From Raphidiopsis brookii D9 (GTDB lineage Bacteria > Cyanobacteriota > Cyanobacteriia > Cyanobacteriales > Nostocaceae), in NCBI GenBank assembly GCA_000175855.1, contig ACYB01000020.1, forward strand, positions 90,001 to 122,000: a stretch of DNA of 32,000 nt, read 5' to 3'. The position numbers and the translations under genes are program-made. This document shows positions 4,399-32,000 of this stretch, one piece after another. The notes under the pieces are model-generated. The model was not told the origin of the DNA and made no database searches. It was given only the letters and a program-made list of their open reading frames with translations. The first letter of the stretch is position 1; each line of letters starts with the position of its first letter.

Positions 4399-4427
4399 TT
4401 GTCAATACCCCATTTGTCTGTTATAAT
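4399..4427 (+). promoter_or_regulatory. Sigma-70-type promoter candidate for ssb
   Basis: TTGTCA (4399-4404), 17-nt spacer, TATAAT (4422-4427). This is about 43 nt upstream of the ssb ATG at 4470. Confidence 0.45.
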
Positions 4428-4469
4428 GTAACCTCATTTCTTTTTGGAAACAAGGTAACGGTAACACAA

Positions 4470-4533
4470 ATGAGCATTAATGTTGTCACTTTGGTGGGAC
4501 GTGTCGGTGGCGATCCCACTATCAAATATTTTG
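4470..4533 (+). CDS. ssb: Single-stranded DNA-binding protein, exon 1 (MSINVVTLVGRVGGDPTIKYF plus the first base of a Glu codon)
   Basis: Absent from the ORF track because the unspliced frame stops at 4545-4547. The N-terminus is the canonical SSB OB-fold opening. The exon ends immediately before the GTGCGAC intron 5' end. Confidence 0.8.
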
Positions 4534-5273
4534 GTGCGACCCGTTAAGTGGAAAACCAAGCCCTAGCCTGGAAACCATTACAAGGATGTGGCTGTGTGCC
4601 TACTTCACCTTGAAACTTAGCTCCTGAGAGGGTGAGATTTCTAAGAAATATGAGAAAACTATAACAAATGTCAATAAATGCTCATAGATTAAAATCTGTA
4701 ACAGGCTTCTTAGAACTTCAATTCCCTCCTTCTAGATGCCAGAAGATGCAACGCCCCCACTTTTGGGACTGACAATCACCAAGGGTGAAGCGGGGAGTAA
4801 AGGAGGTAACTTTGAACCTGGCAAGGAATCCCTCCCAGCAGAGATGGGTATGAGTAAGGTAATCTGAATCTATGTTGGAGCCGTCGTCATTGATATCAGC
4901 CTACACAGGTTATTGGCTGTGCCAAAAGGCAAGGATTTGGGCTAGGCAATCCAAAATTTGACCTAGGGCATTCCCGCATAAACCCGGCGGATAGTAGGAC
5001 TCTAACCCCATCGTCAAGCAGGAGCTAGGAACGGGATAACCCCCCAATTTCTCTCTCAATGTTCCATTGGTGAGTAGGGAGTCACCCGGATGATTTTGGG
5101 GGGAGGGATTGGCTCAGAAGCCAAAGCCTTTGGGAAAGCCAAAGGATATGCAGACAGAGCCACAATAACTCAAAATAGGTCCCATTGAGTTATTGAGGAG
5201 CCGTGTGCGGTGAAAGTCGCATGCACGGTTTTGAAGCAGAGGTAACCAGGGTGACCTGTTTATCGACTGTAAC
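4534..5273 (+). mobile_element. ORF-less group II intron (740 nt) inside ssb
   Basis: The 5' end GTGCGAC matches the GUGYG consensus. Domain V at 5198-5231 (GAGCCGTGTGCGGTGAAAGTCGCATGCACGGTTT) has the AGC triad and a GAAA tetraloop. A 10-bp hairpin lies just upstream (5164-5173 / 5185-5194), and the 3' end is ...TGTAAC. A hairpin loop carries CAAAAT (4952-4957), complementary to the last six exon-1 nt ATTTTG, so it is a candidate EBS1. No ORF of 60 aa or more lies inside. Confidence 0.85.
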
Positions 5274-5572
5274 AGTCGGGAACTGTTAAGTGCGAGTTGA
5301 CTTTAGCAGTTAATCGCAGAACTCGTAATAGTGACCAACCAGATTGGTTTAATCTGGAAATCTGGGGCAAAACAGCAGAGGTGGCTAATAATTATGTCCG
5401 CAAAGGTGCATTAATTGGCATTAAGGGTTTTCTTAAGTTTGATACCTGGAGCGATCGCCAGACCGGTACAAACCGTTCCAAGCCCGTCATTCAAGTAGAA
5501 CAACTAGAATTACTAGGTTCTAAACGAGATAGCGAAGCTGGGATGGCTGATATACCGGCGGAGAATTTCTAA
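5274..5572 (+). CDS. ssb: Single-stranded DNA-binding protein, exon 2
   Basis: Joining 4533 to 5274 gives G+AG = Glu and the sequence ...IKYF-E-SGTVKCELTLAVNRRTRNSDQPDWFNLEIWGKTAEVA... The product is a 120-aa OB-fold SSB from 363 spliced nt. The track ORF 5297..5572 is the tail of this exon. Confidence 0.85.
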
Positions 5573-5591: not shown

Positions 5592-5617
5592 GGCAGACGG
5601 GGATTTACCAGTCTGCC
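5592..5617 (+). terminator. Candidate intrinsic terminator after ssb
   Basis: 7-bp stem ggcagac/gtctgcc with a 12-nt loop, followed by a T-rich tail (atccgtatttattt). It starts 20 nt after the ssb stop. Confidence 0.4.
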
Positions 5618-5633
5618 ATCCGTATTTATTTAA

Positions 5634-5677
5634 GGGCGAACGATGGGACTTGAACCGACGAGTGGTGGAACCACAAT
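5634..5677 (-). repeat. Orphan copy of the 3' half of tRNA-His (anticodon loop to 3' end); putative distal att-type repeat
   Basis: gggcgaacgatgggacttgaaccGacgagtggtggaaccacaat matches 7878-7921 at 43 of 44 positions (the mismatch is at 5657). With one indel the match extends about 4 nt further. The offset is 2244 bp in direct orientation. Confidence 0.8.
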
Positions 5678-5766: not shown

Positions 5767-6741
5767 ATGTTGCATAATGTAAAGATACCGTTAGCGAAAG
5801 AAATCATGCAGACCGTTACACTTGGCGACCGCGGACCTAGCGTTAGTGCTTTAGGGATGGGGACTTGGGCTTGGGGAGATACGCTTTTTTGGGCTTATGG
5901 CAAATCCTTTGGAGAGTCGGAGGTAGCAGCAGCATTTCAGGCATCCTTGGCAGCAGGGATTACCTTTTTTGATACGGCGGAGATCTATGGTTTTGGAGAA
6001 TCAGAACGGCTACTCGGCCAGTTTTGTCAGCAAACCCAGCAGCCGGTTCAAATTGCGACCAAGTATTTTCCCTTGCCCTGGCGCTGGAATCGAGTCGCGA
6101 TCGTCGATGCCTTAACAGCCAGTTTAGACCGCCTACGAATGTCGCGAATTTGCCTGTATCAAATCCATTGGCCCTTGGAATTTTTGCTGAAAACCCAAGA
6201 CTTTATGGAAGTGTTAGCGGCGGAGGTTAAAAAAGGACGCATCCAAGCCGTAGGAGTTAGTAACTATGGGGCGAAACAAATGACCCTCGCCCATGAGTAT
6301 CTGGCGGCAAAAGGTATTCCCCTAGCGACCAATCAAGTCCCCTATTCCTTATTGACGAGACAAATTGAGAGCAACGGCATTCTCGACCAAGCTCGTCAAT
6401 TGGGCGTAACCATTCTCGCCTACAGTCCCTTAGCGCAAGGACTACTCACAGGCAAATATACCCCCGAAACTGCTCCCAGTTTGCAAGGCGCACGCCGTCT
6501 TGATCCCCGCTTCAGTCCCCAAGGGCTGAAAAAACTAGCTCCCCTAATTTCTGCCCTCCAACAAATTGGAGAAAAATATGACAAAACCCCGGCCCAGGTA
6601 TCTTTAAATTGGTTGATTGCCCAGGGAAATGTCATCCCTATTCCTGGGGCGAAGAATGCCAACCAAGCTAAGCAAAATGCGGGAGCTTTGGGATGGTTGT
6701 TGAGTCCAGAAGAGGTGGAAAGCCTAGGTACAATTGTTTGA
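5767..6741 (+). CDS. Aldo/keto reductase family oxidoreductase
   Basis: AKR hallmarks: LGMGTWAWG, FFDTAEIYG, IHWP and VGVSNY. The more likely start is ATG at 5806 (MQTVTLGDRG...). G+C is noticeably higher than in the flanks. Confidence 0.85.
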   Translation: MLHNVKIPLAKEIMQTVTLGDRGPSVSALGMGTWAWGDTLFWAYGKSFGESEVAAAFQASLAAGITFFDTAEIYGFGESERLLGQFCQQTQQPVQIATKYFPLPWRWNRVAIVDALTASLDRLRMSRICLYQIHWPLEFLLKTQDFMEVLAAEVKKGRIQAVGVSNYGAKQMTLAHEYLAAKGIPLATNQVPYSLLTRQIESNGILDQARQLGVTILAYSPLAQGLLTGKYTPETAPSLQGARRLDPRFSPQGLKKLAPLISALQQIGEKYDKTPAQVSLNWLIAQGNVIPIPGAKNANQAKQNAGALGWLLSPEEVESLGTIV

Positions 6742-7674: not shown

Positions 7675-7878
7675 TTCATAAAGGTTCACGGGAAGCTCAA
7701 CGGGGCGATCGCTCTGTGAAAGCCGAGTCTCGCTGAGAGCGACAATCCCATCATTGACCTCAAAACCAAAAGGACTCCCAAAACCACGAAACCCTTCCGT
7801 AATCAACAAAACTTTTATCATTTATCTAAGATAATTCCGAATTTTAGTCTAGCCTGAAATCGGAAGCCTTGAAAACAG

Positions 7879-7952
7879 GGCGAACGATGGGACTTGAACC
7901 CACGAGTGGTGGAACCACAATCCACTGCCTTAACCACTTGGCTACGCTCGCC
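7879..7952 (-). tRNA. tRNA-His (anticodon GTG) with encoded G-1
   Basis: The reverse strand reads g-gcgagcg-ta-gcc-aagtggttaa-ggc-a-gtgga-ttGTGgt-tccac-cactc-gtggg-ttcaagt-cccat-cgttcgc-c. This folds as a cloverleaf with a 7-bp acceptor stem, a G-1:C73 pair and a TTCAAGT T-loop. No CCA is encoded. Confidence 0.9.
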
Positions 7953-9410: not shown

Positions 9411-10163
9411 TTGGGTAAGGTGTATTTAGTTGGTGCTGGACCTGGTGATCCAGGACTGATGACTCTCAAGGGTAAGGGTTTATTAGAACGTGCTAACGTG
9501 GTTGTCTATGATGCGTTAGTTAGTCCACAGGTTTTGGACATGATTAGTCCCCACGCGGAAAAAATAGATGCTGGTAAGCGAATGGGAAGACATTCACTCT
9601 TACAAGAGGAAACTACTCAACTACTGATAGAAAAAGCCCAAGAACATGAAATTGTCGTGCGATTGAAGGGAGGCGACCCTTTTATTTTTGGGCGTGGTGG
9701 CGAGGAAATGGCTGAGTTGATAGCTGGGGGAATTAGCGTAGAAGTTGTTCCAGGGATTACCGCTGGTATTGCAGCACCAGCTTATGCTGGCATTCCCTTG
9801 ACCCATCGTCTTTATAGTTCTTCTGTGACATTTGTTACTGGACATGAAGCCATGGGTAAGTACAGACCAGCGGTCAATTGGCAAGCAATTGCCCAAAGTT
9901 CGGAAACTATTGTAATTTATATGGGTATACACAATCTTCCCTATATCCTGGAACAGTTGATGGGGGTAGGAATGAGTTCACAAACTCCTATTGCTTTAGT
10001 TCGCTGGGGAACTCGTCCGGAACAGGAGGAATTAATCGGTGAGTTGGGAACTATTATTCAACAAGTGGCAAAAACGGGATTTAGCGCTCCAGCTATAGCT
10101 GTTATTGGCTCAGTAGTAAAAATGCACGGTGTTTTATCCGTTCTCCAGGGAGTTTTAAATTGA
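9411..10163 (+). CDS. cobA: Uroporphyrinogen-III C-methyltransferase (SUMT)
   Basis: VYLVGAGPGDPGLMTLKG and RLKGGDPFIFGRGGEE tetrapyrrole-methylase motifs. The start is TTG at 9411 or GTG at 9420. Confidence 0.9.
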   Translation: MGKVYLVGAGPGDPGLMTLKGKGLLERANVVVYDALVSPQVLDMISPHAEKIDAGKRMGRHSLLQEETTQLLIEKAQEHEIVVRLKGGDPFIFGRGGEEMAELIAGGISVEVVPGITAGIAAPAYAGIPLTHRLYSSSVTFVTGHEAMGKYRPAVNWQAIAQSSETIVIYMGIHNLPYILEQLMGVGMSSQTPIALVRWGTRPEQEELIGELGTIIQQVAKTGFSAPAIAVIGSVVKMHGVLSVLQGVLN

Positions 10164-22015: not shown

Positions 22016-23851
22016 ATGAACAGGGAATCCCTTAAGGAAGGAAGCGTCAACAATCATATTATTGGATATTGTAGTGACAAGCAACAAGAAAAGCTAACCA
22101 GAAAGATCCAGGGTAGAAAAAAAACCATCAAAAATGGCAAATTTATTTGTGAAGTAATTGACATTGGATACAAAACGGTAGCTAGAAGAGGGAAAAAAAC
22201 CGCCAGAGGAGAGAATATTGATCATGTTATTGTCAGCATTTGTGCAGGGAGAATTGGCAATGCTGACATTTGGGTAAAGTGGGAACATAACAAGTTAATT
22301 TTGGGTAGAGAAATATTTGGCAGAGTTCCCTTATTTTGGACCTGTACAAAAGATGTTATTTGGTTTAGCTCCCAGTTACAATTACTTTTACAGATTCTGG
22401 ATAAATGGGAAATTTATCTTCCTAGTTTATATAGTTATTGTTGTTTCTCATATATAACTAATCCCCTAATGCCCGTGGAGGGAGTATTCTCTGTAATTGC
22501 GGGTCAAGAGATAGTTTTTAGTCTGGATAATCACTTTAATGAAGCAGGAAATATTCCCCCTAAGATTAATTCTCCTCAAGTTAGAACAACTTATCAATGG
22601 CGGGAAAATCCAGAGAAGATAACCGATGAAACAGTGGCAATTTACCAATTGCAGAACTTATTGAAAAATGCCATAGAAAACCAAGTTCAGGATTTAAATC
22701 ATGAACCTGTAGGAGTTTTTTTATCTGGTGGTTTAGACTCTTCTATAGTTGCTGCTTTGTTGGTAGAATCTGGAGTGAAAGTTCGTGCTTATGCTTTAGA
22801 CTTTGGTGAGTTTGGCACTTCTGAATATCCATACGCGCAAAAAGTAGCAGAGTTTTTGAACATACCTCTTGTGAAAGTTGATGTGAGTCCTAAAAATATT
22901 AAAAAAGCCATTATTCCTACAGTTAAAGCCCTAGATTTACCCTTCGGTGATGGTGTTACCGTTCCCCTATATTTAATCAATCAAATTGCCTCACAAGAAA
23001 CTCAAATTGTTTTTAATGGCGAAGGGGGAGATCAACTGTTTGCAGGTTGGACAAATAAACCCCTAATTGCTGCTGGCGTTTATCAAAATCAATATTCCCA
23101 ACATCCTGAAAATGCCAGTTTTATTCAACAATATCTACACACCTTTCATCGTCTATGGGGTTATGAATCCAAAGTATATCAGGCAGAAACTTATGACCAG
23201 ATTCGGCAATTAAATGCCCAAGAATGGCTATTAGATGCTCTCGATAGTCATTTTTGTCCTTCCTTGTTACATCGTCTGCGTCGTGCCAACTTAATGTTAA
23301 AAGGATCCCAAAATATTCACCCCCGTGCTACAGCCATTAGTTTTGCAAATGGTTTAAATGTGCGATCGCCATTTTGTGATTTAGCCCTAGCTGAATGGAC
23401 ATTTCAGCTATCCGGAGAATTGTGTTTACAAGGTGCTTGCGAGAAGTATATTCTCAAACGTGCTGTAGAAAATTGGCTACCAGCAGAAATTGTATGGAGA
23501 CAAAAGCGGGGTATGGGGGTTCCCCTGACTTCCTGGTGTTTAAATGATTTATGGTATGATCTGGGTAACTGGCTAAATCCAGGTATTCTAGGAGAAGAAA
23601 ATATTTTTTATCCCGATATAGGGATAAAAGTTATCACAGGAAAATTAGGAGGAAACATCCATGGGAGACGGATAGGTGAGATACTTTGGTTACTAATTAT
23701 GTGGCAACTTTGGTACACTCACGTTTTTGGTGTTAACCCGACAGCAACGTCTAGCAAAAAGTCCAGCAATCATCCATTTTTACTACCCTATTGGTTATGG
23801 AAAGGATACAGAAAGTTCACCGAAAATCTGATGGAGAGTCTCCCGGTTTAG
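22016..23851 (+). CDS. Asparagine synthetase (AsnB) family protein lacking the N-terminal Cys nucleophile; adenylating PP-loop enzyme of unknown substrate
   Basis: 611 aa. PP-loop VGVFLSGGLDSS, then FNGEGGDQLFAGW, then SPFCD...EKYILKR...LPAEIVWRQKRG, which aligns with E. coli AsnB (VPFLD...EKHILRE...LPASVAWRQKEQ). The N-terminus is MNRESLKEG..., not MCG... Confidence 0.8.
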   Translation: MNRESLKEGSVNNHIIGYCSDKQQEKLTRKIQGRKKTIKNGKFICEVIDIGYKTVARRGKKTARGENIDHVIVSICAGRIGNADIWVKWEHNKLILGREIFGRVPLFWTCTKDVIWFSSQLQLLLQILDKWEIYLPSLYSYCCFSYITNPLMPVEGVFSVIAGQEIVFSLDNHFNEAGNIPPKINSPQVRTTYQWRENPEKITDETVAIYQLQNLLKNAIENQVQDLNHEPVGVFLSGGLDSSIVAALLVESGVKVRAYALDFGEFGTSEYPYAQKVAEFLNIPLVKVDVSPKNIKKAIIPTVKALDLPFGDGVTVPLYLINQIASQETQIVFNGEGGDQLFAGWTNKPLIAAGVYQNQYSQHPENASFIQQYLHTFHRLWGYESKVYQAETYDQIRQLNAQEWLLDALDSHFCPSLLHRLRRANLMLKGSQNIHPRATAISFANGLNVRSPFCDLALAEWTFQLSGELCLQGACEKYILKRAVENWLPAEIVWRQKRGMGVPLTSWCLNDLWYDLGNWLNPGILGEENIFYPDIGIKVITGKLGGNIHGRRIGEILWLLIMWQLWYTHVFGVNPTATSSKKSSNHPFLLPYWLWKGYRKFTENLMESLPV

Positions 23852-25086
23852 TTACAGATCCAACTACGAGTCCCACCATACCTTTTTCCTTAGAATTGGC
23901 TGAGGAATTGTTAGGTACTTATGGCTCTCCTCTGTACGTTTACGATAGCGACATTTTAAATCAAACCATTGCCCATATTACCAAGTCCTTTAAATATCCC
24001 GAAACCAGATTTTATTTTGCCACTGTCACCAATGGTAATATTGCCCTGTTGAAAGTTTTTAAAAATGCCCATTGGGGACTACATGCGAACACACCGGGAG
24101 ATATTTATTTAGGGTTAAGTGCAGGGTTTGCACCCGATAGCATTATATATAGCGGTACTAACTTAAATCGGGAGGAGATAGAGCAGGTATTAAGTTGGGG
24201 TGTAACTACCCTAAATTTGGATAGTCTTGCCCAAGTGCAATTGTTATGTGAAGTTTGTTCATCTCTTAAAAATACAGCAGGAAAAGGGAAAAACTTAAAT
24301 ACATTTAGTCGATTAAACCAGTTAGATATTGGACTGCGGTTAAATGTTGGAGGAGAGAGTCGAATTGGGGTGAGATTACAAGACTTTAACACAGCGATTG
24401 CTATAGCCAAAAATGTGGGATTGGAGATTTCAGGTTTACATTTTTATCGAGGTACAGGAACTAATGCGACCAAAGCATTCACCGATGCAATTGATGAAGT
24501 TTTAGTAGCTGCTCAAAATTTACCACACTGGAAATATATAGACTTTGGTGGTGGTTTTGGTTATCCCTATAATCACCAAGGAATTGCTTTTGATTGGGAA
24601 TTATTTGGAGGAGAGATCATTCAAAGAATTAGTAACTTAGATAGAACAATCAAATTAATCATTGAACCAGGACGTGCTGCTATAGCTAGTTGTGGTACTT
24701 TACTGGCCAAAGTTGTTTCAGTCAAATGGCAAGATAACAAGCAAATTTTAGGAGTAGATTCCACAGTTGGTAATATTGCTGTCCCCTCCGTTTATGGAGG
24801 TTATCGAGAAATTATTAGTTGGAAAAATCACAGTCCTAAATATATCACAGATATTTGTGGAAATACCACCTACTCACGGGATTATCTGGGTAAAAATTGC
24901 CAACTTCCCTCTCTAGAGATGGGAGATATTATCGGTATTTTAGACGTAGGTGCTTATGGTTATGCTATGTCCTCTCATTTTTTACATCGTCCTAAACCAG
25001 GAGAGGTATTATTGGAGAATAGTCAACATCGTCTAATTAGAAACCGGGAGGACTACAGTGTTTTATTGACTAATCAGATATGGTAA
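23797..25086 (+). CDS. Diaminopimelate decarboxylase (LysA) / fold-type III PLP-decarboxylase homolog with a substituted active-site lysine
   Basis: GSPLYVYD, DFGGGFGYPY, EPGRAAIA, DVGAYGYAMSS and HRLIRNRE align along the full length of E. coli LysA. Start is ATG at 23797 (or TTG at 23791), which overlaps the upstream gene by 55-61 nt. Confidence 0.8.
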   Translation: MERIQKVHRKSDGESPGLVTDPTTSPTIPFSLELAEELLGTYGSPLYVYDSDILNQTIAHITKSFKYPETRFYFATVTNGNIALLKVFKNAHWGLHANTPGDIYLGLSAGFAPDSIIYSGTNLNREEIEQVLSWGVTTLNLDSLAQVQLLCEVCSSLKNTAGKGKNLNTFSRLNQLDIGLRLNVGGESRIGVRLQDFNTAIAIAKNVGLEISGLHFYRGTGTNATKAFTDAIDEVLVAAQNLPHWKYIDFGGGFGYPYNHQGIAFDWELFGGEIIQRISNLDRTIKLIIEPGRAAIASCGTLLAKVVSVKWQDNKQILGVDSTVGNIAVPSVYGGYREIISWKNHSPKYITDICGNTTYSRDYLGKNCQLPSLEMGDIIGILDVGAYGYAMSSHFLHRPKPGEVLLENSQHRLIRNREDYSVLLTNQIW

Positions 25087-25111
25087 TAGTTATTATTTTC
25101 AAGTGTTGGGC

Positions 25112-25150
25112 TAGATTACTGTAGATTACTTTAGATCAATCAAGATTACT
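25112..25150 (+). repeat. Four tandem 10-bp-phased direct repeats (tagattact-like) immediately upstream of the 25157 start codon
   Basis: tagattact (25112-25120), tagattact (25122-25130), tagatcaat (25132-25140) and aagattact (25142-25150). Confidence 0.7.
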
Positions 25151-25156
25151 AAAACC

Positions 25157-26461
25157 ATGAAATGTGTAAACTGCGGAACTGATAACAAGCTAAGGGACAG
25201 AAAAGAAAGGAATGGAAGATGTAAACAATGTCATCACCAGTTCACTTTTGAACCAACAGATATGGGAGCGGTAAAAATTACAGATGCCATGTTTTCTAAA
25301 ACGTTGGCTGATATCTCTGTCAATCATACGTTACATTTTACAAATAAACAGTTTTTATATTTTTTAGATAGTCGTCTGAAGAAGAAAGCATTTAAATCCT
25401 CTGGTTTTTGGATACTGTACTTTTCGTTGAGTATTTTCCTAGCATCTATTTTTGGAATAGTGGGCAATTTAATTTTGCAAGTGTTATTTGTTACTTACTT
25501 ATTTCTCCTTGCTCAGTCCAATAAACTTGATAGTTTTACTCGCAGAAATAGTGCCAAGAGATTGGTGTTTGTTGGCGTATTCATCTTAATATTTAGCACA
25601 TTATTGTGGTGGTCATCTTACAATGTAAACTTGATTTTTTATTCCTTCACCTTTTTAGGAATCTTGTCAGTATTATTGGGAATACTCCAATTAGTCAGGA
25701 TTAAAAATTCACGAGACTTAGGATATGATAGTCAAGAATTTTTAATTACTCAGTCAAATGTCAATGATTGGTTAGCAAGATGGCAATTATTGAATGGCAA
25801 AGTTGATAAAATCTTACCGGAAACACCAACCGAAATTGAAGCAGCATCTATTAATCCAGAAATAACCGCTTACAGTTTTGATAGACTAGTGGTTTGTAGT
25901 AGTCCCAGTATAGCTCAAGTGTTAATTGCTAATAACTTACATTTTGAGCATAATTGTGCAATTTTAAGTATGAATGGTTATCCTGAAAATATTTTTGGGA
26001 TAACCATGGAAATGTTAAAAAGAAACCCTAATTTACAGATTTTTGCTTTACATGATTGTAGTCCTGAAGGTGTGAGTTTAGTAAATTATATTCGCACCGA
26101 TGAAAATTGGTTTTTAAATAGTCAACTCCCCATTATTGATATTGGGTTATTACCAAGACAAATTCTAGGCAATAAGGGAGGAATGTTTATACAAAATACA
26201 GCTACCTCAGCGGAAAAATCCAAGAACTTACCCATGGAAATTCGTCAAACTCTATCTGCTCAAGAATTAGCTTGGTTAGATGCTGGTAACTTTATCGAGT
26301 TAGAATCCTTTTCACCACAAACATTGATTCAAGTGATTAGAAATGCTATTTCTAGAAGTTTTGATTTAGTACCTGATAGTAATGGTTTATTAGTAATCAG
26401 CGATCCAGTTAATTATGTTGATACTAATAATAGTATTTACATGATTGAAAGTTTTGGTTAA
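25157..26461 (+). CDS. Zn-ribbon membrane protein with an uncharacterised C-terminal cytoplasmic domain
   Basis: 434 aa. N-terminal CxxC-15 residues-CxxC (CVNCGTDNKLRDRKERNGRCKQC), about four hydrophobic helices (residues roughly 85-180), and a soluble C-terminal domain of about 230 aa with no motif I can name. Confidence 0.6.
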   Translation: MKCVNCGTDNKLRDRKERNGRCKQCHHQFTFEPTDMGAVKITDAMFSKTLADISVNHTLHFTNKQFLYFLDSRLKKKAFKSSGFWILYFSLSIFLASIFGIVGNLILQVLFVTYLFLLAQSNKLDSFTRRNSAKRLVFVGVFILIFSTLLWWSSYNVNLIFYSFTFLGILSVLLGILQLVRIKNSRDLGYDSQEFLITQSNVNDWLARWQLLNGKVDKILPETPTEIEAASINPEITAYSFDRLVVCSSPSIAQVLIANNLHFEHNCAILSMNGYPENIFGITMEMLKRNPNLQIFALHDCSPEGVSLVNYIRTDENWFLNSQLPIIDIGLLPRQILGNKGGMFIQNTATSAEKSKNLPMEIRQTLSAQELAWLDAGNFIELESFSPQTLIQVIRNAISRSFDLVPDSNGLLVISDPVNYVDTNNSIYMIESFG

Positions 26462-26476
26462 GTTTATACATAAAAT

Positions 26477-28213
26477 TCATCGTTGGGATTTATTGACCTG
26501 TAACCAAATTTCTAAACTAACCAACAACCATAATTTCACACCATATCTTCCCCAAGTATCACCTTGAAAATCCAACCAGTTACGGATAATATCCTGATTT
26601 ATATAGTTGGCAATTTCACCGTTTTTGTTCAATAACAATTTTCTGGCTTGTTTTTGCCAATATTTTCTAAACCCTAATTGTACGGGAACCATCATACCAC
26701 TTTTAGGACGCTGAATGATTTCCTTAGGCAAAATATTACTGACCGCGTTTTTAAAAACGGCTTTTTCCTCAACTCCTGAAAGTTTATACTCCGGAGGAAT
26801 TTGCATACTAAAATCAACTATACGCCGATCAAATAGAGGTGATAACCCTTGCAAACCAGCTCCTTGAGTGAGATTATTAACCTTGGTTAAAATATGGTCT
26901 GCTCCCTTAAATTTGATATTTAATATCATTAATCTGTTGAGATAATTTATCTTAGCATTTAAATCATCAACAAATACACAGGGTTGGTTTACTAGAGTCT
27001 GCCAAACTTCAGTTTTTAGCAGTTGCGGTAGGTCTAGAGCGCATTTTTGAAAAGATATTAAATAGGCTTTTAAAGAATCTTGATGATTAATTCTACTATA
27101 TAAACTATTAATCAACATTGGTTGATTTTTGGGTCCACCAAAACAGGGATCTCCCCCTTCTCCATTCAAGATAATTTGCACATTTTCTCTAGCCAATTTG
27201 CCCAACAATAAATTTGGTACTGTCAATGGGTCACCTATAGGGTTATCCAGATATAACATAGTTTGTGGTAAAAGTTCCCACATTTGTTTAAATGTAATTT
27301 CTAAAATGTGATGTTCGGTTTGACAATGTTGGGCAACTAAACTAGAAAATTCGAGTTCGTTAGGTGTTTCGGTGCCAAAATGAATGGAATATGTATGAAC
27401 TGGTGAATTATGAAATTTTCTGGTCAATGCTGTAATACTACTAGAATCCAATCCACCGGAGAGAAATACTCCCACGGGTTGATTTTCAGGTAAATATTCT
27501 TTGACAACTTGTTCCAGTAAACAACGTAATTTTTCACCATACCATTCCAGAGGTTGATATGGTTCTATAATATTCTCTTTTAATTGCCAATAATGAGTAA
27601 TTTCATGGGATGGAATTTTTAAAAATGTCCCTTGAGCAATTTCTTGCACATTTTGCCAAAGTGTCTTTGTTCCGGGAACAAATGCACAACATAAATAATC
27701 TCGTAATGCAATTAGATCCAACTGATGGTAGTGGTAAGGTGCAAGAGTTGTTAATTTAGGAGCTATGTAATATGTGCCACGATCAAGAGTGTAATATAAA
27801 TTCTTTTTCCCTATGGCATCCCTAATCAAGTATAATTCTTGTTGGTTCCTATCCCAAATGACAATATTAAACATTCCCAATAACATGGTCAATGATTGAT
27901 GGTTGTATTTTTCCCACAGTTGGGCTACTATTTGTTGATCACTAATTTCAGTATGATTATCAAGACATAACTTTTCTAAAAGTTGCCAGCGATTACTCAA
28001 CCATATATCACCCATGATAATAAATCTTTGCTTGGGACTAACACTGAAATTCTCTGAGGAAACAAAGGCGATTTTTCGATCTTGCCAAATTATCTTCTCC
28101 CTTGATTTATTGATCTCATCCAGGTTACCATAGACCACAAACCAACTGGGAATTAAGTCAAGATGTCCCGGTGGGAATTGACGATTTGGTCCAAGTTTAA
28201 AAAACATTCTCAC
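26477..28213 (-). CDS. Second asparagine synthetase (AsnB) family protein lacking the N-terminal Cys nucleophile
   Basis: 578 aa. A GATase-2-like fold is retained (MGDIWLSNRWQLLEKL, GMFNIVIWDRNQQELYLIRDAIGKKNLYY), but the N-terminus is MRMFFKLG... PP-loop VGVFLSGGLDSS and LNGEGGDPCFGG are present. Confidence 0.8.
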   Translation of the reverse strand: MRMFFKLGPNRQFPPGHLDLIPSWFVVYGNLDEINKSREKIIWQDRKIAFVSSENFSVSPKQRFIIMGDIWLSNRWQLLEKLCLDNHTEISDQQIVAQLWEKYNHQSLTMLLGMFNIVIWDRNQQELYLIRDAIGKKNLYYTLDRGTYYIAPKLTTLAPYHYHQLDLIALRDYLCCAFVPGTKTLWQNVQEIAQGTFLKIPSHEITHYWQLKENIIEPYQPLEWYGEKLRCLLEQVVKEYLPENQPVGVFLSGGLDSSSITALTRKFHNSPVHTYSIHFGTETPNELEFSSLVAQHCQTEHHILEITFKQMWELLPQTMLYLDNPIGDPLTVPNLLLGKLARENVQIILNGEGGDPCFGGPKNQPMLINSLYSRINHQDSLKAYLISFQKCALDLPQLLKTEVWQTLVNQPCVFVDDLNAKINYLNRLMILNIKFKGADHILTKVNNLTQGAGLQGLSPLFDRRIVDFSMQIPPEYKLSGVEEKAVFKNAVSNILPKEIIQRPKSGMMVPVQLGFRKYWQKQARKLLLNKNGEIANYINQDIIRNWLDFQGDTWGRYGVKLWLLVSLEIWLQVNKSQR

Positions 28214-28282
28214 TCCTTACTATTGCTTAACCTGTTGGTGTAACCTTTAGTATAACTAATCAAACTAATCATTTAACCTAAA

Positions 28283-29020
28283 ATGAATGATCAAAACATG
28301 ATCAAAACAATTTTCGTTCCCCAGGGATCAGAGTACCAAGCTGTTTATCGTGGATTAAATTCTGTGTTCAGGAATTCTGTCTCTAATTCAAAGATACAAG
28401 TCATTGGCATACCTATGGGCATTTCATCACTTCAAGAATTCCTCACAAGGAAATATCAACACCTAAAGCAATCAAATCAAAGAATATTACTTATGGGACT
28501 ATGTGGTAGTCTCCACGGAAGTTATCGTGTGGGTGATACTGTATTATATGAAAAGTGTATATATGATAAAAAACAATTAGATAAGACAAATCCAGTAAAC
28601 TCAATAAATCAAATAAACTGCGACATTAGTTTAACTCAAGATATATATGAGCGTATTGGAAATAGGGTATCGTTAGTGAGGGGAATAACAAGTGATACAG
28701 TAGTTTTTAAATCCTCTGAAAAACGGAGTCTACATCAAAAATTTGGTGCTGATGTGGTGGACATGGAAGGATTTGGGTTCCTAGAGTTTTTCCAGGGAAC
28801 AGGGATATCCACCGCAATACTAAGAGTTGTTAGTGATGATTCAATTCATGACATACCAGACTTGACCAAAGCTATCAACTCCCAAGGTTTACTGGAGATC
28901 TTACCTTTAGTAATCACTTTAACTCGACAACCTATAGCTGCTAGTCACTTAATTAGGGGTTCACTATGCGGATTAAAGCAATTAGAGACAGTAACTAGGT
29001 GTTTAGCAATTCAGGAGTAA
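28283..29020 (+). CDS. PNP/UDP-phosphorylase superfamily protein (MTA/SAH-nucleosidase-like)
   Basis: 245 aa. FVPQGSEYQAV, LLMGLCGSL, VVDMEGFG and LRVVSDD resemble the MTAN/futalosine-hydrolase-type motifs (E..., ME, SD). Confidence 0.65.
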   Translation: MNDQNMIKTIFVPQGSEYQAVYRGLNSVFRNSVSNSKIQVIGIPMGISSLQEFLTRKYQHLKQSNQRILLMGLCGSLHGSYRVGDTVLYEKCIYDKKQLDKTNPVNSINQINCDISLTQDIYERIGNRVSLVRGITSDTVVFKSSEKRSLHQKFGADVVDMEGFGFLEFFQGTGISTAILRVVSDDSIHDIPDLTKAINSQGLLEILPLVITLTRQPIAASHLIRGSLCGLKQLETVTRCLAIQE

Positions 29021-29101
29021 GTCCCTGAAATACCCAACAAATCAGGGACAGGCAAAATTGAAGCAAATTCAGTTCTTTAACAATCACTATTAAATGAATC
29101 A

Positions 29102-29233
29102 TCAAATTGCTGATAGTAGTATTTGAGAATCAAAAAACATTTTAAAAGAATCATTAGGGACAAGTTGACGCAGATGCTGAATATAGCCATCCATATCTGA
29201 CTTACTGCGAAAGCGAGCAACAATACGCTGCAT
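29102..29233 (-). CDS. Possible small ORF (43 aa) downstream of the HlyD gene
   Basis: Not in the ORF track. ATG at 29233..29231 to TGA at 29104..29102 reads MQRIVARFRSKSDMDGYIQHLRQLVPNDSFKMFFDSQILLSAI. No clear Shine-Dalgarno sequence. It could be a chance ORF. Confidence 0.2.
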   Translation of the reverse strand: MQRIVARFRSKSDMDGYIQHLRQLVPNDSFKMFFDSQILLSAI

Positions 29234-29304
29234 TAGGTTAAGTAAGAAATAGGCGTTCAGTCTAGCACTAGTTGCCAAAAGTTAGCAAGTGGATAACTAG
29301 TTAA

Positions 29305-30870
29305 TTACCTTACTTTCTGTAAGCTCTCAAATTGATTAGTAAACACATCCGTAAACAAACTCATAACGCTCCTTTCCTCACGCACTTTGATATTGGCAGT
29401 AATGGCCATACCAGACTGTAAAGCAATAGTTCTACCTTGAGATTCTATAGTTTGTTTATTTAAACTAACCCGCGCTGGAAAGCGATAAAACTGATGGGTC
29501 TGGTCAGGAGGTAAAGCATCTGAACCGATATTAGTTACTTTACCTTTGATATCGCCAAACTCAGTAAAGGGGAAGGAATCAATTCTCACATCCACCTTCA
29601 TTCCCTCCTTCACAAATCCAATATCCTTATTGGTGATAAATACCTCTGCTATATATTTATCATTGGGGACAATCTGGAGTAACTTTTGTGTTGGGTTAGC
29701 CACAAAACCTGGGTTTTTTGCCTGCATATCAAATATTATACCTGACACGGGAGCACGAAGTTCTTGATATTTGACGTTTAATTTTGTCTGGGAAATTTTA
29801 CTGTTAATGTCTGACAATCTCTGTTCATTTTCTAAAATTATTCTCATAAATTGGCTGTCTATTTCCGCCATTCGCTTTTTGTTAGTAGCTATCTGTTCCA
29901 ACACGTTCTTATCGGTGACTGCTACAGTGTTAGCTACCTCTTGTTGTGCCCTTTGAATATCAAACTGTAGACGCTTTTCTTCTTCCAACAACTGAGCTAT
30001 TTCCGCTTTCAAGTTTTGCACCTGCTGTTGCTGATTGAGATATTGCAGTTGAGAAATACCTCCCTCTTTGGCGAGGACTTCTACCCTATGTAAGATTCCT
30101 TGTTGAATTGATAGACTGTTCTGTGTATCCTTTCTCTTCACTATTGTTTGAGATAGTTGTTTCTTAATTTTTTCTACCTCGAATTTGGCCGCATTGGAGC
30201 GAGATTCTAATTCTTTTCTAGCTACAATTAGTCTTTGTTGCTCATCAATTCCTCCTCCTACTTGCGCGTTGGAATTTCCCAGTTGTGAACGTAACAATTG
30301 ATTTTCTTCTACTAGAGAAATCCGACTTTTTAATAGAAATGCTGCTTCTGCTGGTAGACCACCACCCAGAAAATTCAATTCTGAACTGACAGCACTACTT
30401 GCATTCATCAAACGACGATAGATGTCATTCTCCCTGATTAAAACAGCACGAACGTTATTGAGAGATCCGAGCTCAGCTCGGGTAGCAATGGATTCAAATG
30501 TTAATAGTAGATCTCCCTTTTTCACCTCCTGTCCATCCTTGACATGAATAGACTCTACCACACCACTAATAGGTGCTTGTACATCCTTTACCGTACCCTC
30601 TGGTTTTAATTGTCCTGTAGCGGGAACTACTTGTTCAATTTTTGCATAATAAGCCCAACCCACGCCAAAACAGGCCACAAGCATCAAGGTAATCATGATT
30701 GTGCGTGACCAAATGGGTGATTGTCGTAAAACTATGGATTGTTCAAAGCTGTCTTGATAAGCATGACTTAAATTCCCTGCTTTGGCTTTTGATAGGGTTT
30801 GAAGTACCCCCAGATTAGTATTTTTACCATTACTATTGCCTATTGGATGATCGTTATTAAATTGAGTCAT
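29305..30870 (-). CDS. HlyD-family periplasmic adaptor (membrane fusion protein) of a type I / bacteriocin-type exporter
   Basis: 521 aa. N-terminal TM helix (IMITLMLVACFGVGWAYYA), a lipoyl-like hairpin (VKDGQEVKKGDLLL), a long coiled coil and a C-terminal beta-barrel. Lies 28 nt downstream of the ABC gene. Confidence 0.9.
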   Translation of the reverse strand: MTQFNNDHPIGNSNGKNTNLGVLQTLSKAKAGNLSHAYQDSFEQSIVLRQSPIWSRTIMITLMLVACFGVGWAYYAKIEQVVPATGQLKPEGTVKDVQAPISGVVESIHVKDGQEVKKGDLLLTFESIATRAELGSLNNVRAVLIRENDIYRRLMNASSAVSSELNFLGGGLPAEAAFLLKSRISLVEENQLLRSQLGNSNAQVGGGIDEQQRLIVARKELESRSNAAKFEVEKIKKQLSQTIVKRKDTQNSLSIQQGILHRVEVLAKEGGISQLQYLNQQQQVQNLKAEIAQLLEEEKRLQFDIQRAQQEVANTVAVTDKNVLEQIATNKKRMAEIDSQFMRIILENEQRLSDINSKISQTKLNVKYQELRAPVSGIIFDMQAKNPGFVANPTQKLLQIVPNDKYIAEVFITNKDIGFVKEGMKVDVRIDSFPFTEFGDIKGKVTNIGSDALPPDQTHQFYRFPARVSLNKQTIESQGRTIALQSGMAITANIKVREERSVMSLFTDVFTNQFESLQKVR

Positions 30871-30898
30871 AAGGATTTTTCGGGTTGATGATTGAGTA

Positions 30899-32000
30899 TT
30901 AAAGATTGACTTCCTGTTGCTGGTAAAGGTAGAAATAGTGTCCTTTAGCAGTCATTAGTTTTTGGTGACTACCCTGTTCCACAACTCTACCGCCATCCAT
31001 GACTACAATTGTATCTGAATTGCTCACAGTATTGAGACGGTGAGTGATAAAGAAAACAGTTTTGCCCTGGAATGCTTTAGCCAAGTTCAAGCATATTTGC
31101 CTTTCTGTGGGATAGTCTAGGGCACTTGTGGCTTCATCTAAAACTAATATTTTAGGTTTTTGCAGTATGGAACGAGCAATGGCTATTCTTTGTCTTTGTC
31201 CTCCAGACAGGTTCGACCCTTTTTCCCCAACTTTGGTGTTATAACCATTGGAGAGATTCATGATAAATTCATGAGCAACTGCTATTTGAGCTGCTTCCAC
31301 CACTTCCTCCGTGGTGGCGTCAGGATTGGTTAGGGCTATATTATCGAATACTGTTCCATCAAATAATAGAGTATCTTGGGGAACCACACCGATTTGTCTT
31401 CTGACGGAATAAAGCTCAACCTTGCTGATGTCGTAACCATCAATAAAAATTCTCCCAGACTCAGTATTATAAAGTCTCAGGAGTAATTTCATCATGGTAC
31501 TTTTTCCTGACCCACTTTGTCCCACAATGCCCACAAATGTGCCCGCTGGAAAATCTAAACTGACGTTATTTAGTTGCAGGGATCCGTTTGTCGCAAAGCG
31601 GAAGCAAACATTTTCATATTTGACTGCACCAACAACACTGGGTAAGGGAATATTATCTTTGTCTACTTCTGCTTCCTGAGGTGTGTCCACAATATCACTC
31701 AATCTCTCCAGGGATAATCCTGTTTCTTGGAAGTTTTGCCAGATTTGTGCCAGTCTCAATATGGGACTGGTAACATAACTAGAAATAATTCTAAAAGCAA
31801 TTAATTCCCCTAGAGTTAATTCTCCTTGTAAAACTAAATAAGCTCCTACCCATAATACTAACAAGCTACTTAGTTTATTGAGAAACTGACTAGTAGAATT
31901 AGCTAATGTTGATGTAATAACTGTTTTAAAACCTGCGGAAACAAACTTAGCATAACGCTCTTGCCAAGAAAAGCGCGATCGCAGTTCAATATTTTGGGCC
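30899..32000 (-). CDS. ABC exporter (fused TMD-NBD, HlyB/bacteriocin-exporter type), C-terminal part; the gene continues off the right edge
   Basis: Walker A GQSGSGKST, signature LSGGQRQR, Walker B ILVLDEATSALD. The frame stays open upstream of the track start (31864) through position 32000, reading TMD sequence. Any N-terminal C39 or cNMP domain would lie outside the window. Confidence 0.9.
   Translation of the reverse strand, partial: AQNIELRSRFSWQERYAKFVSAGFKTVITSTLANSTSQFLNKLSSLLVLWVGAYLVLQGELTLGELIAFRIISSYVTSPILRLAQIWQNFQETGLSLERLSDIVDTPQEAEVDKDNIPLPSVVGAVKYENVCFRFATNGSLQLNNVSLDFPAGTFVGIVGQSGSGKSTMMKLLLRLYNTESGRIFIDGYDISKVELYSVRRQIGVVPQDTLLFDGTVFDNIALTNPDATTEEVVEAAQIAVAHEFIMNLSNGYNTKVGEKGSNLSGGQRQRIAIARSILQKPKILVLDEATSALDYPTERQICLNLAKAFQGKTVFFITHRLNTVSNSDTIVVMDGGRVVEQGSHQKLMTAKGHYFYLYQQQEVNL

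Follow-up and report, generated by a model that had tools for sequence, protein, structure and literature searches.

A group II intron without an open reading frame very probably interrupts the alr0088-type ssb gene of Raphidiopsis brookii D9 and its relatives

Is the ssb gene of Raphidiopsis brookii D9, annotated as encoding an SSB (a protein that binds single-stranded DNA) of 91 amino acids (aa), complete as annotated, or is it divided by an unrecognized intron? The question is raised by a 32,000-nt stretch of contig ACYB01000020.1 (positions 90,001–122,000, forward strand; assembly GCA_000175855.1), hereafter called the window, whose own numbering is used throughout. The sole SSB open reading frame (ORF) of at least 60 aa in the window lies at 5297–5572 (+ strand) and starts with TTG. 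A previous sequence-only reading of this DNA had remarked that only the C-terminal 91 codons of SSB are visible in the ORF track, which is indeed the case, and had proposed that a group II intron separates them from the rest of the gene. The evidence described below indicates that positions 4534–5273 (+ strand) very probably constitute a functional ORF-less group II intron, apparently of organelle-like, IIB-type architecture, residing in an ssb gene of the alr0088 type.

The putative intron is 740 nt long and has a G+C content of 47%, compared with 40% for the whole window. When the whole window was scanned with Rfam at gathering thresholds, two matches were obtained, namely tRNA-His and RF00029 (group II domain V/VI). 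The latter covers positions 5196–5273 on the + strand and the full model (1–77), with a score of 58.9 bits (gathering score, 40; E=2.6e-9 for the whole window), and its 3′ end coincides exactly with the proposed 3′ splice site (5273). Domain V occupies the 34 nt of positions 5198–5231 (intron 665–698) and contains the AGC triad, a bulge, and a GAAA tetraloop, as the sequence-only reading had described. It is followed by domain VI (5236–5270; intron 703–737), which has a GUGA loop and in which A5266 (intron 733), the eighth base from the 3′ end, has no partner when aligned to RF00029 and represents a bulged branch-point candidate. The 5′ end of the intron, GUGCG (4534–4538), fits the group II consensus GUGYG, and the 3′ end, AC (last bases AAC), fits the AY rule. 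The predicted fold of the whole intron was better than those of all 20 shuffled sequences (z=-3.7). Domain IV (5164–5194; intron 631–661) consists of a perfect 10-bp hairpin (5164–5173/5185–5194) with an 11-nt loop and carries neither an ORF nor an ORF remnant, which agrees with the previous description of a reduced domain IV; the intron was classified as ORF-less because this 31-nt hairpin contains no maturase ORF. The longest ORFs in the intron encode 43 aa (+ strand) and 49 aa (- strand), no reverse transcriptase (RT)/maturase ORF was found in domain IV, and the 43-aa ORF yielded no Pfam match.

Exon 1 (4470–4533, + strand) comprises 21 codons, MSINVVTLVGRVGGDPTIKYF, and the first base (G) of the codon for Glu22. 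The frame that begins with the ATG at 4470 reads into GTGCGAC at 4534, continues with GATR, and then meets a stop codon, so forming an ORF at 4470–4547 that ends four codons after the exon, as had been pointed out. Exon 2 (5274–5572, + strand) extends from the last two bases of the Glu22 codon through the stop codon. Joining of position 4533 to position 5274 (AAATATTTTG/AGTCGGGAAC) creates a 363-nt reading frame with a single terminal stop codon, which encodes 120 aa and in which G/AG forms Glu22. The deduced spliced product matches the Pfam SSB family (PF00436) over the full model (1–104 of 104; E=2e-27). Its best database relatives are the 120-aa SSBs of other Nostocales (identity up to 85%), with which it aligns without gaps, including at the junction; Y20, F21, E22, S23, and G24, which span the junction, are invariant. 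The uninterrupted site, TATTTTG/AGTCGGG, is present in a Sphaerospermopsis-type metagenome contig and in Dolichospermum compactum, both of which share the mreDCB-ssb synteny, and the six bases AUUUUG at the end of exon 1 (4528–4533) are also found at the uninterrupted sites of these orthologs. At the sequence level, excision of the intron is therefore predicted to restore an ssb reading frame that is colinear both with orthologs lacking the intron and with the DNA of the uninterrupted site, and the junction, the Glu codon, and the 120-aa product proposed in the previous reading were all upheld by the Pfam match and the ortholog alignment.

The product of the joined exons contains a complete OB-fold SSB domain, its orthologs are ~120 aa in length, and the gene lies in the order mreDCB-ssb. 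Judging from the primer names in a published study (PMC7593598), Anabaena alr0088 neighbours mreB (all0087), and the position beside mreB identifies the interrupted gene as the ortholog of alr0088. Alr0088 has been described as an SSB that consists of an OB fold only, without a P/G spacer or an acidic tail, and All4779 has been argued to be the major canonical SSB of Anabaena, homologs of both being said to be present in all cyanobacteria (Kirti et al., PMC3976300). Genes of the slr0925/alr0088 type were found in 76 of 76 cyanobacteria surveyed and were counted among the core repair genes, and a role of alr0088 in tolerance to UV and mitomycin C is cited in the same work (Cassier-Chauvat et al., PMC5101192). 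On the basis of this survey, the designation of the gene as core and strongly conserved is justified, but its previous description as an essential housekeeping gene was overstated in view of the role argued for All4779 (PMC3976300). The C terminus of the spliced SSB (5540–5569) reads ...MADIPAENF; all aligned orthologs (consensus ...DMSPENF) likewise terminate in F. This end bears a loose likeness to the D-D-D-I-P-F tip of canonical SSBs; the Alr0088 type, as mentioned above, was described as lacking an acidic tail.

The locus was also retrieved 24 times from named genomes and from metagenomes; together with the window copy, these sequences represent 13 haplotypes and 7 distinct intron sequences. 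The spliced 363-nt ORF, with its single terminal stop codon, is intact in all 13 haplotypes, and the variable sites at codon positions 1, 2, and 3 number 3, 5, and 24, respectively. In exon 1, which is open in every haplotype, there are 10 variable sites, of which 7 are synonymous and 3 cause amino acid changes (V12A, T17S/N, and K19R). In exon 2, 22 of 299 sites are variable and 18 of these are third codon positions. Exon 1 thus evolves as a translated sequence, which requires splicing.

These data bear directly on the annotated gene. Under the name 'single-stranded DNA-binding protein', the 91-aa ORF appears in the annotations of Cylindrospermopsis raciborskii CS-505, LB2897, and S07, as well as in those of R. 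brookii D9, R. curvata NIES-932, and C. curvispora GIHE-G1, and for two of its variants the index of the assembly collection lists 54 and 197 blocks. That it is called by all public annotations and that its protein sequence is highly conserved would be expected if the true product were a 91-aa protein initiated at TTG 5297, with exon 1 and the intron forming an upstream leader. Such a protein, however, would lack residues 1–29, which correspond to positions 1–27 of the 104-position Pfam SSB model and many of which are invariant in orthologs, and a mere leader does not account for the retention of the exon 1 ATG and frame or for the predominance of synonymous changes (7 of 10 variable sites) in exon 1. 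The annotation itself carries no weight, because gene callers are blind to introns. A 91-aa product is accordingly regarded as extremely improbable, and the ORF at 5297–5572 as an artefact of the unrecognized intron.

The ribozyme also appears to be constrained. The sequences GTGCGAC and CTGTAAC at the two ends of the intron, the last six bases of exon 1, and the predicted intron sequence pairing with them are invariant across the haplotypes, and none of the 34 sites of domain V is variable. In the ribozyme core (intron 177–527), 6 of 351 sites (1.7%) are variable, as opposed to 18 of 100 (18%) third positions in the physically linked exon 2 (P=1.9e-8, Fisher test). The whole intron contains 43 variable sites, 25 of which fall within intron 1–176, where peripheral hairpins are located. 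Both exons and the ribozyme core are thus under purifying selection.

The structure was examined by comparison with distant relatives, that is, loci among the matches listed in scans of a genome collection with a semi-degenerate domain V pattern and of metagenomes with the exact domain V sequence plus one base. The alignment used for covariation comprises the 5′ end and the 3′ half of the intron and includes the helices of the domain I closing stem and of domains II, III, IV, and VI. Of the 59 pairs in these helices, 26 are changed on both sides in distant relatives, a number reached in none of 500 shuffles, and 84.7% of the cells are paired, compared with 38–53% when the partners are slid. 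Domain I (4540–5035; intron 7–502) is closed by CCCGUU (4540–4545) and AACGGG (5030–5035), for which the counterparts are CUCGUU/AACGAG in one relative (L156) and UCCGUU/AACGGA in two others (L149 and L152), representing two compensatory changes with 100% of the pairs retained. In domain II (5040–5103; intron 507–570), 4 of the 8 pairs of the basal stem, CCCCCCAA/UUGGGGGG, are changed on both sides. Domain III (5110–5162; intron 577–629) has a basal stem, UGGCUC/GAGCCA, and an inner hairpin, CCUUUGG-GAAAG-CCAAAGG, in which 4 of 6 and 5 of 7 pairs, respectively, are changed on both sides, e.g. UGAGUA/UACUCA in L156. The six-domain structure is therefore supported by covariation over the helices of the domain I closing stem and of domains II, III, IV, and VI, with paired changes coming from the closing stem and from domains II, III, and VI.

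Variation within the genus is compatible with the same fold. Among 121 predicted pairs, 99.3% are paired; six one-sided changes occur, all of which keep the pair (A-U/G.U or G-C/G.U), and one peripheral pair is lost in most lineages. In the fast-evolving periphery of domain I (4547–4715), where hairpins are predicted at intron 14–46 and 48–79 and an A+U-rich hairpin at 106–182, pairing is preserved despite changes at intron sites 15, 57, and 117, and a 2-nt indel falls in a bulge. No counterpart of intron 13–88 was found in the relatives in a MAFFT alignment. In domain IV, A>G at 5164 turns a pair into G.U and the loop contains two more changes; in domain VI, A>G at 5248 keeps the pair as G.U and U>C at 5252 retains a GNRA loop. 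An A is present in L156 at the same distance from the 3′ end as A5266.

The previous reading had suggested that CAAAAU at 4952–4957 is the exon-binding site 1 (EBS1) for the intron-binding site 1 (IBS1), i.e. AUUUUG at 4528–4533, the last six bases of exon 1. This proposal gained strong support. The two sequences form six of six Watson-Crick pairs, and EBS1 lies in a hairpin (4942–4966) with a 5-bp stem and a 15-nt loop that is invariant throughout the genus. IBS1 is AUUUUG here, AAAUCC in L149 and L152, and CUUUAC in L156, each accompanied by its own exact complement upstream of domain V, at a distance of 246 nt here and 250–255 nt in L149/L152 and L156. As judged from these sequences, the EBS1–IBS1 pairing covaries over three lineages at a nearly fixed distance from domain V, which confirms 4952–4957 as the predicted EBS1. 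A second CAAAAU, at intron 638, was also considered as EBS1 and rejected, since it is situated in the domain IV stem and the EBS1 of the relatives is ~250 nt upstream of domain V. As candidates for the second pair, EBS2 and IBS2, UUGAUA (4890–4895) and its complement UAUCAA (4520–4525; exon positions -14 to -9) were identified. The candidate EBS2 is invariant within the genus, and one lineage has UAUCAG at IBS2, in which case the pair is kept as G.U; ~0.17 chance matches are expected by our own estimate, and the 6-nt match is not significant alone. In L156, GCACG, which is complementary to the exon sequence CGUGC of that intron, is located in the region that matches the candidate EBS2 in a rough alignment.

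Two further tertiary contacts were considered. In the linker between domains II and III (J2/3; AGGGAU, 5104–5109), G5106 is a candidate gamma nucleotide, whose putative partner would be C5273, the last base of the intron; in L156, the base aligned to G5106 is A and the intron ends in U. G5105 is replaced by A in C. curvispora without a change at 5273, which counts against 5105 as the gamma nucleotide. C4951, the base 5′ of EBS1, is unable to pair with A5274, the first base of exon 2, and this mismatch argues against a delta-delta′ pair of the IIA type. The IIB or chloroplast-like label is tentative; the relatives are organelle-like or encode RVT_N-RVT_1-GIIM-HNH proteins.

Several observations weigh against the interpretation of this segment as a functional intron. 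Of the Rfam checks that had been suggested, the domain V/VI model gave the clear match described above, but none of the Rfam models for domains I–IV matched the intron even at E<=10. The interior of domain I, apart from the closing stem and the EBS1 hairpin, is a model prediction only. No double compensatory changes were detected within the genus, where variation is too shallow. Neither an RT/maturase among the scanned ORFs of the window nor a second domain V in the window was found, and no second intron with the same domain V was found in one JGI metagenome that holds Cylindrospermopsis, which is a weak negative obtained from a single contig. Finally, the locus is a mosaic of high- and low-divergence blocks, which weakens any single pairwise comparison. 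In such a comparison, with substitutions only counted, the core shows 0 changes in 351 sites, compared with 2.8–4.2% in the spacers outside 4400–4710, a weak contrast with P~0.013 at the lowest background. Because the locus is mosaic, the selection argument rests on the comparison of the 13 haplotypes. The most conspicuous block is the ~310-nt segment 4400–4710, which extends from the promoter region through exon 1 to intron position 176 and differs by 10–25% substitutions from an LB2897-like lineage, whereas its flanks differ by 1–4%. It looks like a mosaic or recombination tract, possibly acquired from a donor of greater divergence in which the intron was likewise present.

If the intron were dead, ssb would be a disrupted pseudogene, and an SSB of the All4779 type would do the work. 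That no maturase was found among the scanned window ORFs, and no second intron with the same domain V in the metagenome, is in line with this, as is the existence in Anabaena of a canonical SSB other than Alr0088, homologs of which are said to occur in all cyanobacteria (PMC3976300). A pseudogene, however, would be expected to degenerate as fast as the spacers on either side. The observed distribution of variable sites over the codon positions (3/5/24), the absence of stop codons and frameshifts from the 13 haplotypes, the ~10-fold lower variability of the core relative to linked third positions, and the invariance of domain V, the splice sites, and EBS1/IBS1 are all contrary to this expectation, and inactivation of the gene is considered very unlikely. 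Because of the evidence for selection and the covariation of EBS1–IBS1 and of the domain helices with those of distant relatives, the intron is almost certainly functional and spliced.

The sequence-only reading also held that bacterial group II introns mostly avoid such genes. This generalization is weaker than stated, since 17 group II introns have been documented to splice in vivo in Trichodesmium erythraeum, 10 of which are ORF-less and reside in genes, and help by maturases encoded in trans has been shown there (PMC4649490). The ssb intron resembles the Trichodesmium introns in that ORF-less introns are located inside conserved protein-coding genes of a cyanobacterial host and expression needs splicing (PMC4649490; Meng et al. 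2005 cited there). In Trichodesmium, however, many introns and maturases coexist in the same genome and splicing is documented, whereas the ssb intron is known as one copy in hosts with small genomes, no maturase was found among the scanned ORFs of the window, and its splicing is predicted. In Thermosynechococcus elongatus, 17 ORF-less TeI3 copies are served by 'driver' proteins (PMC2882425). These introns are likewise compact ORF-less bacterial introns with good EBS/IBS pairing and depend on proteins of other introns, but they keep remnants of the ORF ends and DIVa, are present in 17 copies mostly outside genes, and are mobile (PMC2882425). The ssb intron, in contrast, has a 31-nt domain IV without an ORF remnant, is situated within a core gene, and is apparently fixed as a single copy.

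Among the distant relatives, L156, L160, L162, L149, and L152 are ORF-less introns of 710–714 nt from metagenomes, located in A+T-rich genes resembling those for large-subunit rRNA or tRNA (host genes identified by eye); their host genomes are probably organellar. They share with the ssb intron an identical 34-nt domain V, the GUGCGA start (seen in L156, L149, and L152), a minimal domain IV, the spacing between EBS1 and domain V, and the covarying helices. They differ in having a G+C content of 33–36% and in residing in RNA genes, and the ssb intron has extra peripheral hairpins in domain I. Outside domains V and VI the similarity is low, as nhmmer matches only intron 495–737 for L156. The plastid domain V model RF04356 also matches the ssb intron, below its threshold. 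L149 (oriented positions 2168 and 3047) and L152 (4035 and 4914, with a weaker third) each contain copies of domain V on the same strand at an interval of ~880 nt, the surrounding sequence being very rich in A+T, and one of these copies follows an exon whose end, GGTTCAAATCC, is similar to the T-arm of a tRNA. The copies seemingly belong to ORF-less group II introns that lie close together in a genome of organelle-like character. Two other relatives, from Ktedonobacter racemifer (L081) and a Burkholderiales metagenome-assembled genome (MAG; L121), exhibit nhmmer similarity that extends into domains I–III (intron 151–627 for L081) in addition to domains V and VI. They carry RVT_N-RVT_1-GIIM-HNH ORFs of 585–590 aa in domain IV, whereas the ssb intron has none and, from its sequence, seems to have lost all trace of a domain IV maturase ORF. 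In 8-kb domain V loci of Caldilineaceae MAGs (L117, L130, and L101), tblastn with the spliced SSB detected SSB-like ORFs with 25–30% identity, including three SSB-like segments in L117.

The intron occupies the same site in all 13 haplotypes, which include those of four named species. None of 5.8 billion protein clusters contained a 120-aa protein that exceeds 85% identity to the spliced product, which implies that no intron-less allele of the genus has been sequenced. The nearest intron-less genera are those represented by the Sphaerospermopsis-type contig and D. compactum, in which the order mreD-mreC-mreB/ssb is retained. These findings most likely reflect a single gain on the Cylindrospermopsis/Raphidiopsis stem followed by vertical inheritance. 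The conservation of the empty site in sister genera, where it is a potential homing site, and the mobility of ORF-less introns in T. elongatus (PMC2882425) would also be consistent with an active mobile retroelement that spread recently by retrohoming from a maturase-encoding donor, and the high-divergence block at 4400–4710 could mark recombination or conversion tracts. Recent spread is nevertheless difficult to reconcile with an intron that is present in every haplotype of four species, with no intron-less allele of the genus in the protein database. In addition, the copies differ at 43 sites, by up to ~10% in the 5′ part, intron variation tracks that of the flanking exons, and no second copy with the same domain V was detected in the metagenome that holds the organism. 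An active mobile element that spread recently is thus judged to be quite improbable.

From established knowledge of group II introns, the following course of expression is inferred for ssb. The gene would be transcribed from upstream of 4470 as exon 1-intron-exon 2, and the intron would fold into six domains, with the EBS1 loop, probably together with EBS2, holding the end of exon 1. The 2′-OH of A5266 in domain VI would attack the 5′ splice site (4533/4534), and the freed exon 1 would then attack the 3′ splice site (5273/5274), resulting in the release of the lariat, the joining of G/AG as Glu22, and an mRNA for the 120-aa OB-fold SSB.

With domain IV reduced to a 31-nt hairpin, any protein that assists splicing must be supplied from outside the intron. 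Possible helpers include the maturase of another intron, a free-standing maturase, and a host factor, the alternative being self-splicing. By precedent, the supply of a maturase in trans, as assumed in the sequence-only reading, is plausible, and the odds that a maturase is encoded elsewhere in the genome or that splicing proceeds without one are roughly even. A more specific possibility is that the genus has no group II maturase at all and that its core gene ssb contains a 'domesticated' ribozyme without siblings, which is passed on vertically and splices by itself or with a recruited host protein. This is held to be rather doubtful; if true, the intron would be a free-living bacterial counterpart of the organellar ORF-less introns with an identical domain V, retained by filamentous cyanobacteria whose genomes rank among the smallest of that group.

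No report of introns or maturases in Cylindrospermopsis/Raphidiopsis genomes was found in the literature and supplements searched, which included the genus genome paper, a group II intron (G2I) survey, and a bacterial RT survey. The intron therefore appears to be unreported in the searchable literature; its kind is already known from Trichodesmium and Thermosynechococcus, and the present evidence extends the pattern of these two organisms rather than revealing a new one. The ssb intron appears distinctive in being apparently solitary, in its fixation across a genus with small genomes, in the bare hairpin of domain IV, and in the identity of its domain V with that of organelle-like introns. As a natural example it is clean: an ORF-less intron has become fixed genus-wide in a core gene, and the purifying selection that acts on the ribozyme can be measured. 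Small genomes make a complete list of possible splicing helpers feasible, and if no maturase exists, the locus would make it possible to test directly by what means a bacterial group II intron persists when it has no protein of its own.

There is also a consequence for annotation. In the examined assemblies, including those of reference strains of a globally invasive toxic bloom former, SSB is called as a 91-aa protein and its first 29 residues are missing. Furthermore, the 43-aa ORF (4736–4867, + strand) in the ribozyme core is annotated as a hypothetical protein in many public assemblies, e.g. at 9440–9571 of the locus designated L001. This ORF is probably spurious, and its conservation is attributable to the RNA, i.e. 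the ribozyme core. Both errors are inherited by comparative and proteomic studies.

A promoter-like site, TTGTCA-17 nt-TATAAT with a TG extension, is located at 4399–4427 (+ strand) and ends 43 nt before the exon 1 ATG; it has 11 of 12 consensus matches and is a candidate by consensus match only. This region is among the most diverged stretches between lineages. At 5592–5631, 20 nt past the ssb stop codon, there is a 7-bp G+C-rich hairpin (GGCAGAC...GTCTGCC, 12-nt loop) followed by a T-rich tail, which could serve as the terminator of a monocistronic ssb transcript; it went unflagged in a terminator scan because its loop exceeds 8 nt.

Farther downstream, a 45-nt direct repeat (5633–5677 and 7877–7921, 98% identical) duplicates the 3′ end of the tRNA-His gene (7878–7951, - strand). 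The repeats bracket a 2.2-kb insert that contains an aldo/keto reductase gene (5767–6741) and two small ORFs. This arrangement is characteristic of elements that insert at tRNA genes, but no integrase is evident. The insert is absent from the CS-505, NIES-932, and GIHE-G1 lineages, in which ssb is directly followed by a DUF4359 gene. In the distal part of the window (22016–31864), two genes of the asparagine synthase family (22016–23851, + strand; 26477–28213, - strand), a gene for a pyridoxal phosphate-dependent ornithine/diaminopimelate/arginine decarboxylase (23791–25086), a 434-aa ORF without a Pfam match (25157–26461), and genes for an HlyD-type membrane-fusion protein and an ABC ATPase are found, and together they look like a small biosynthesis-and-export cluster.

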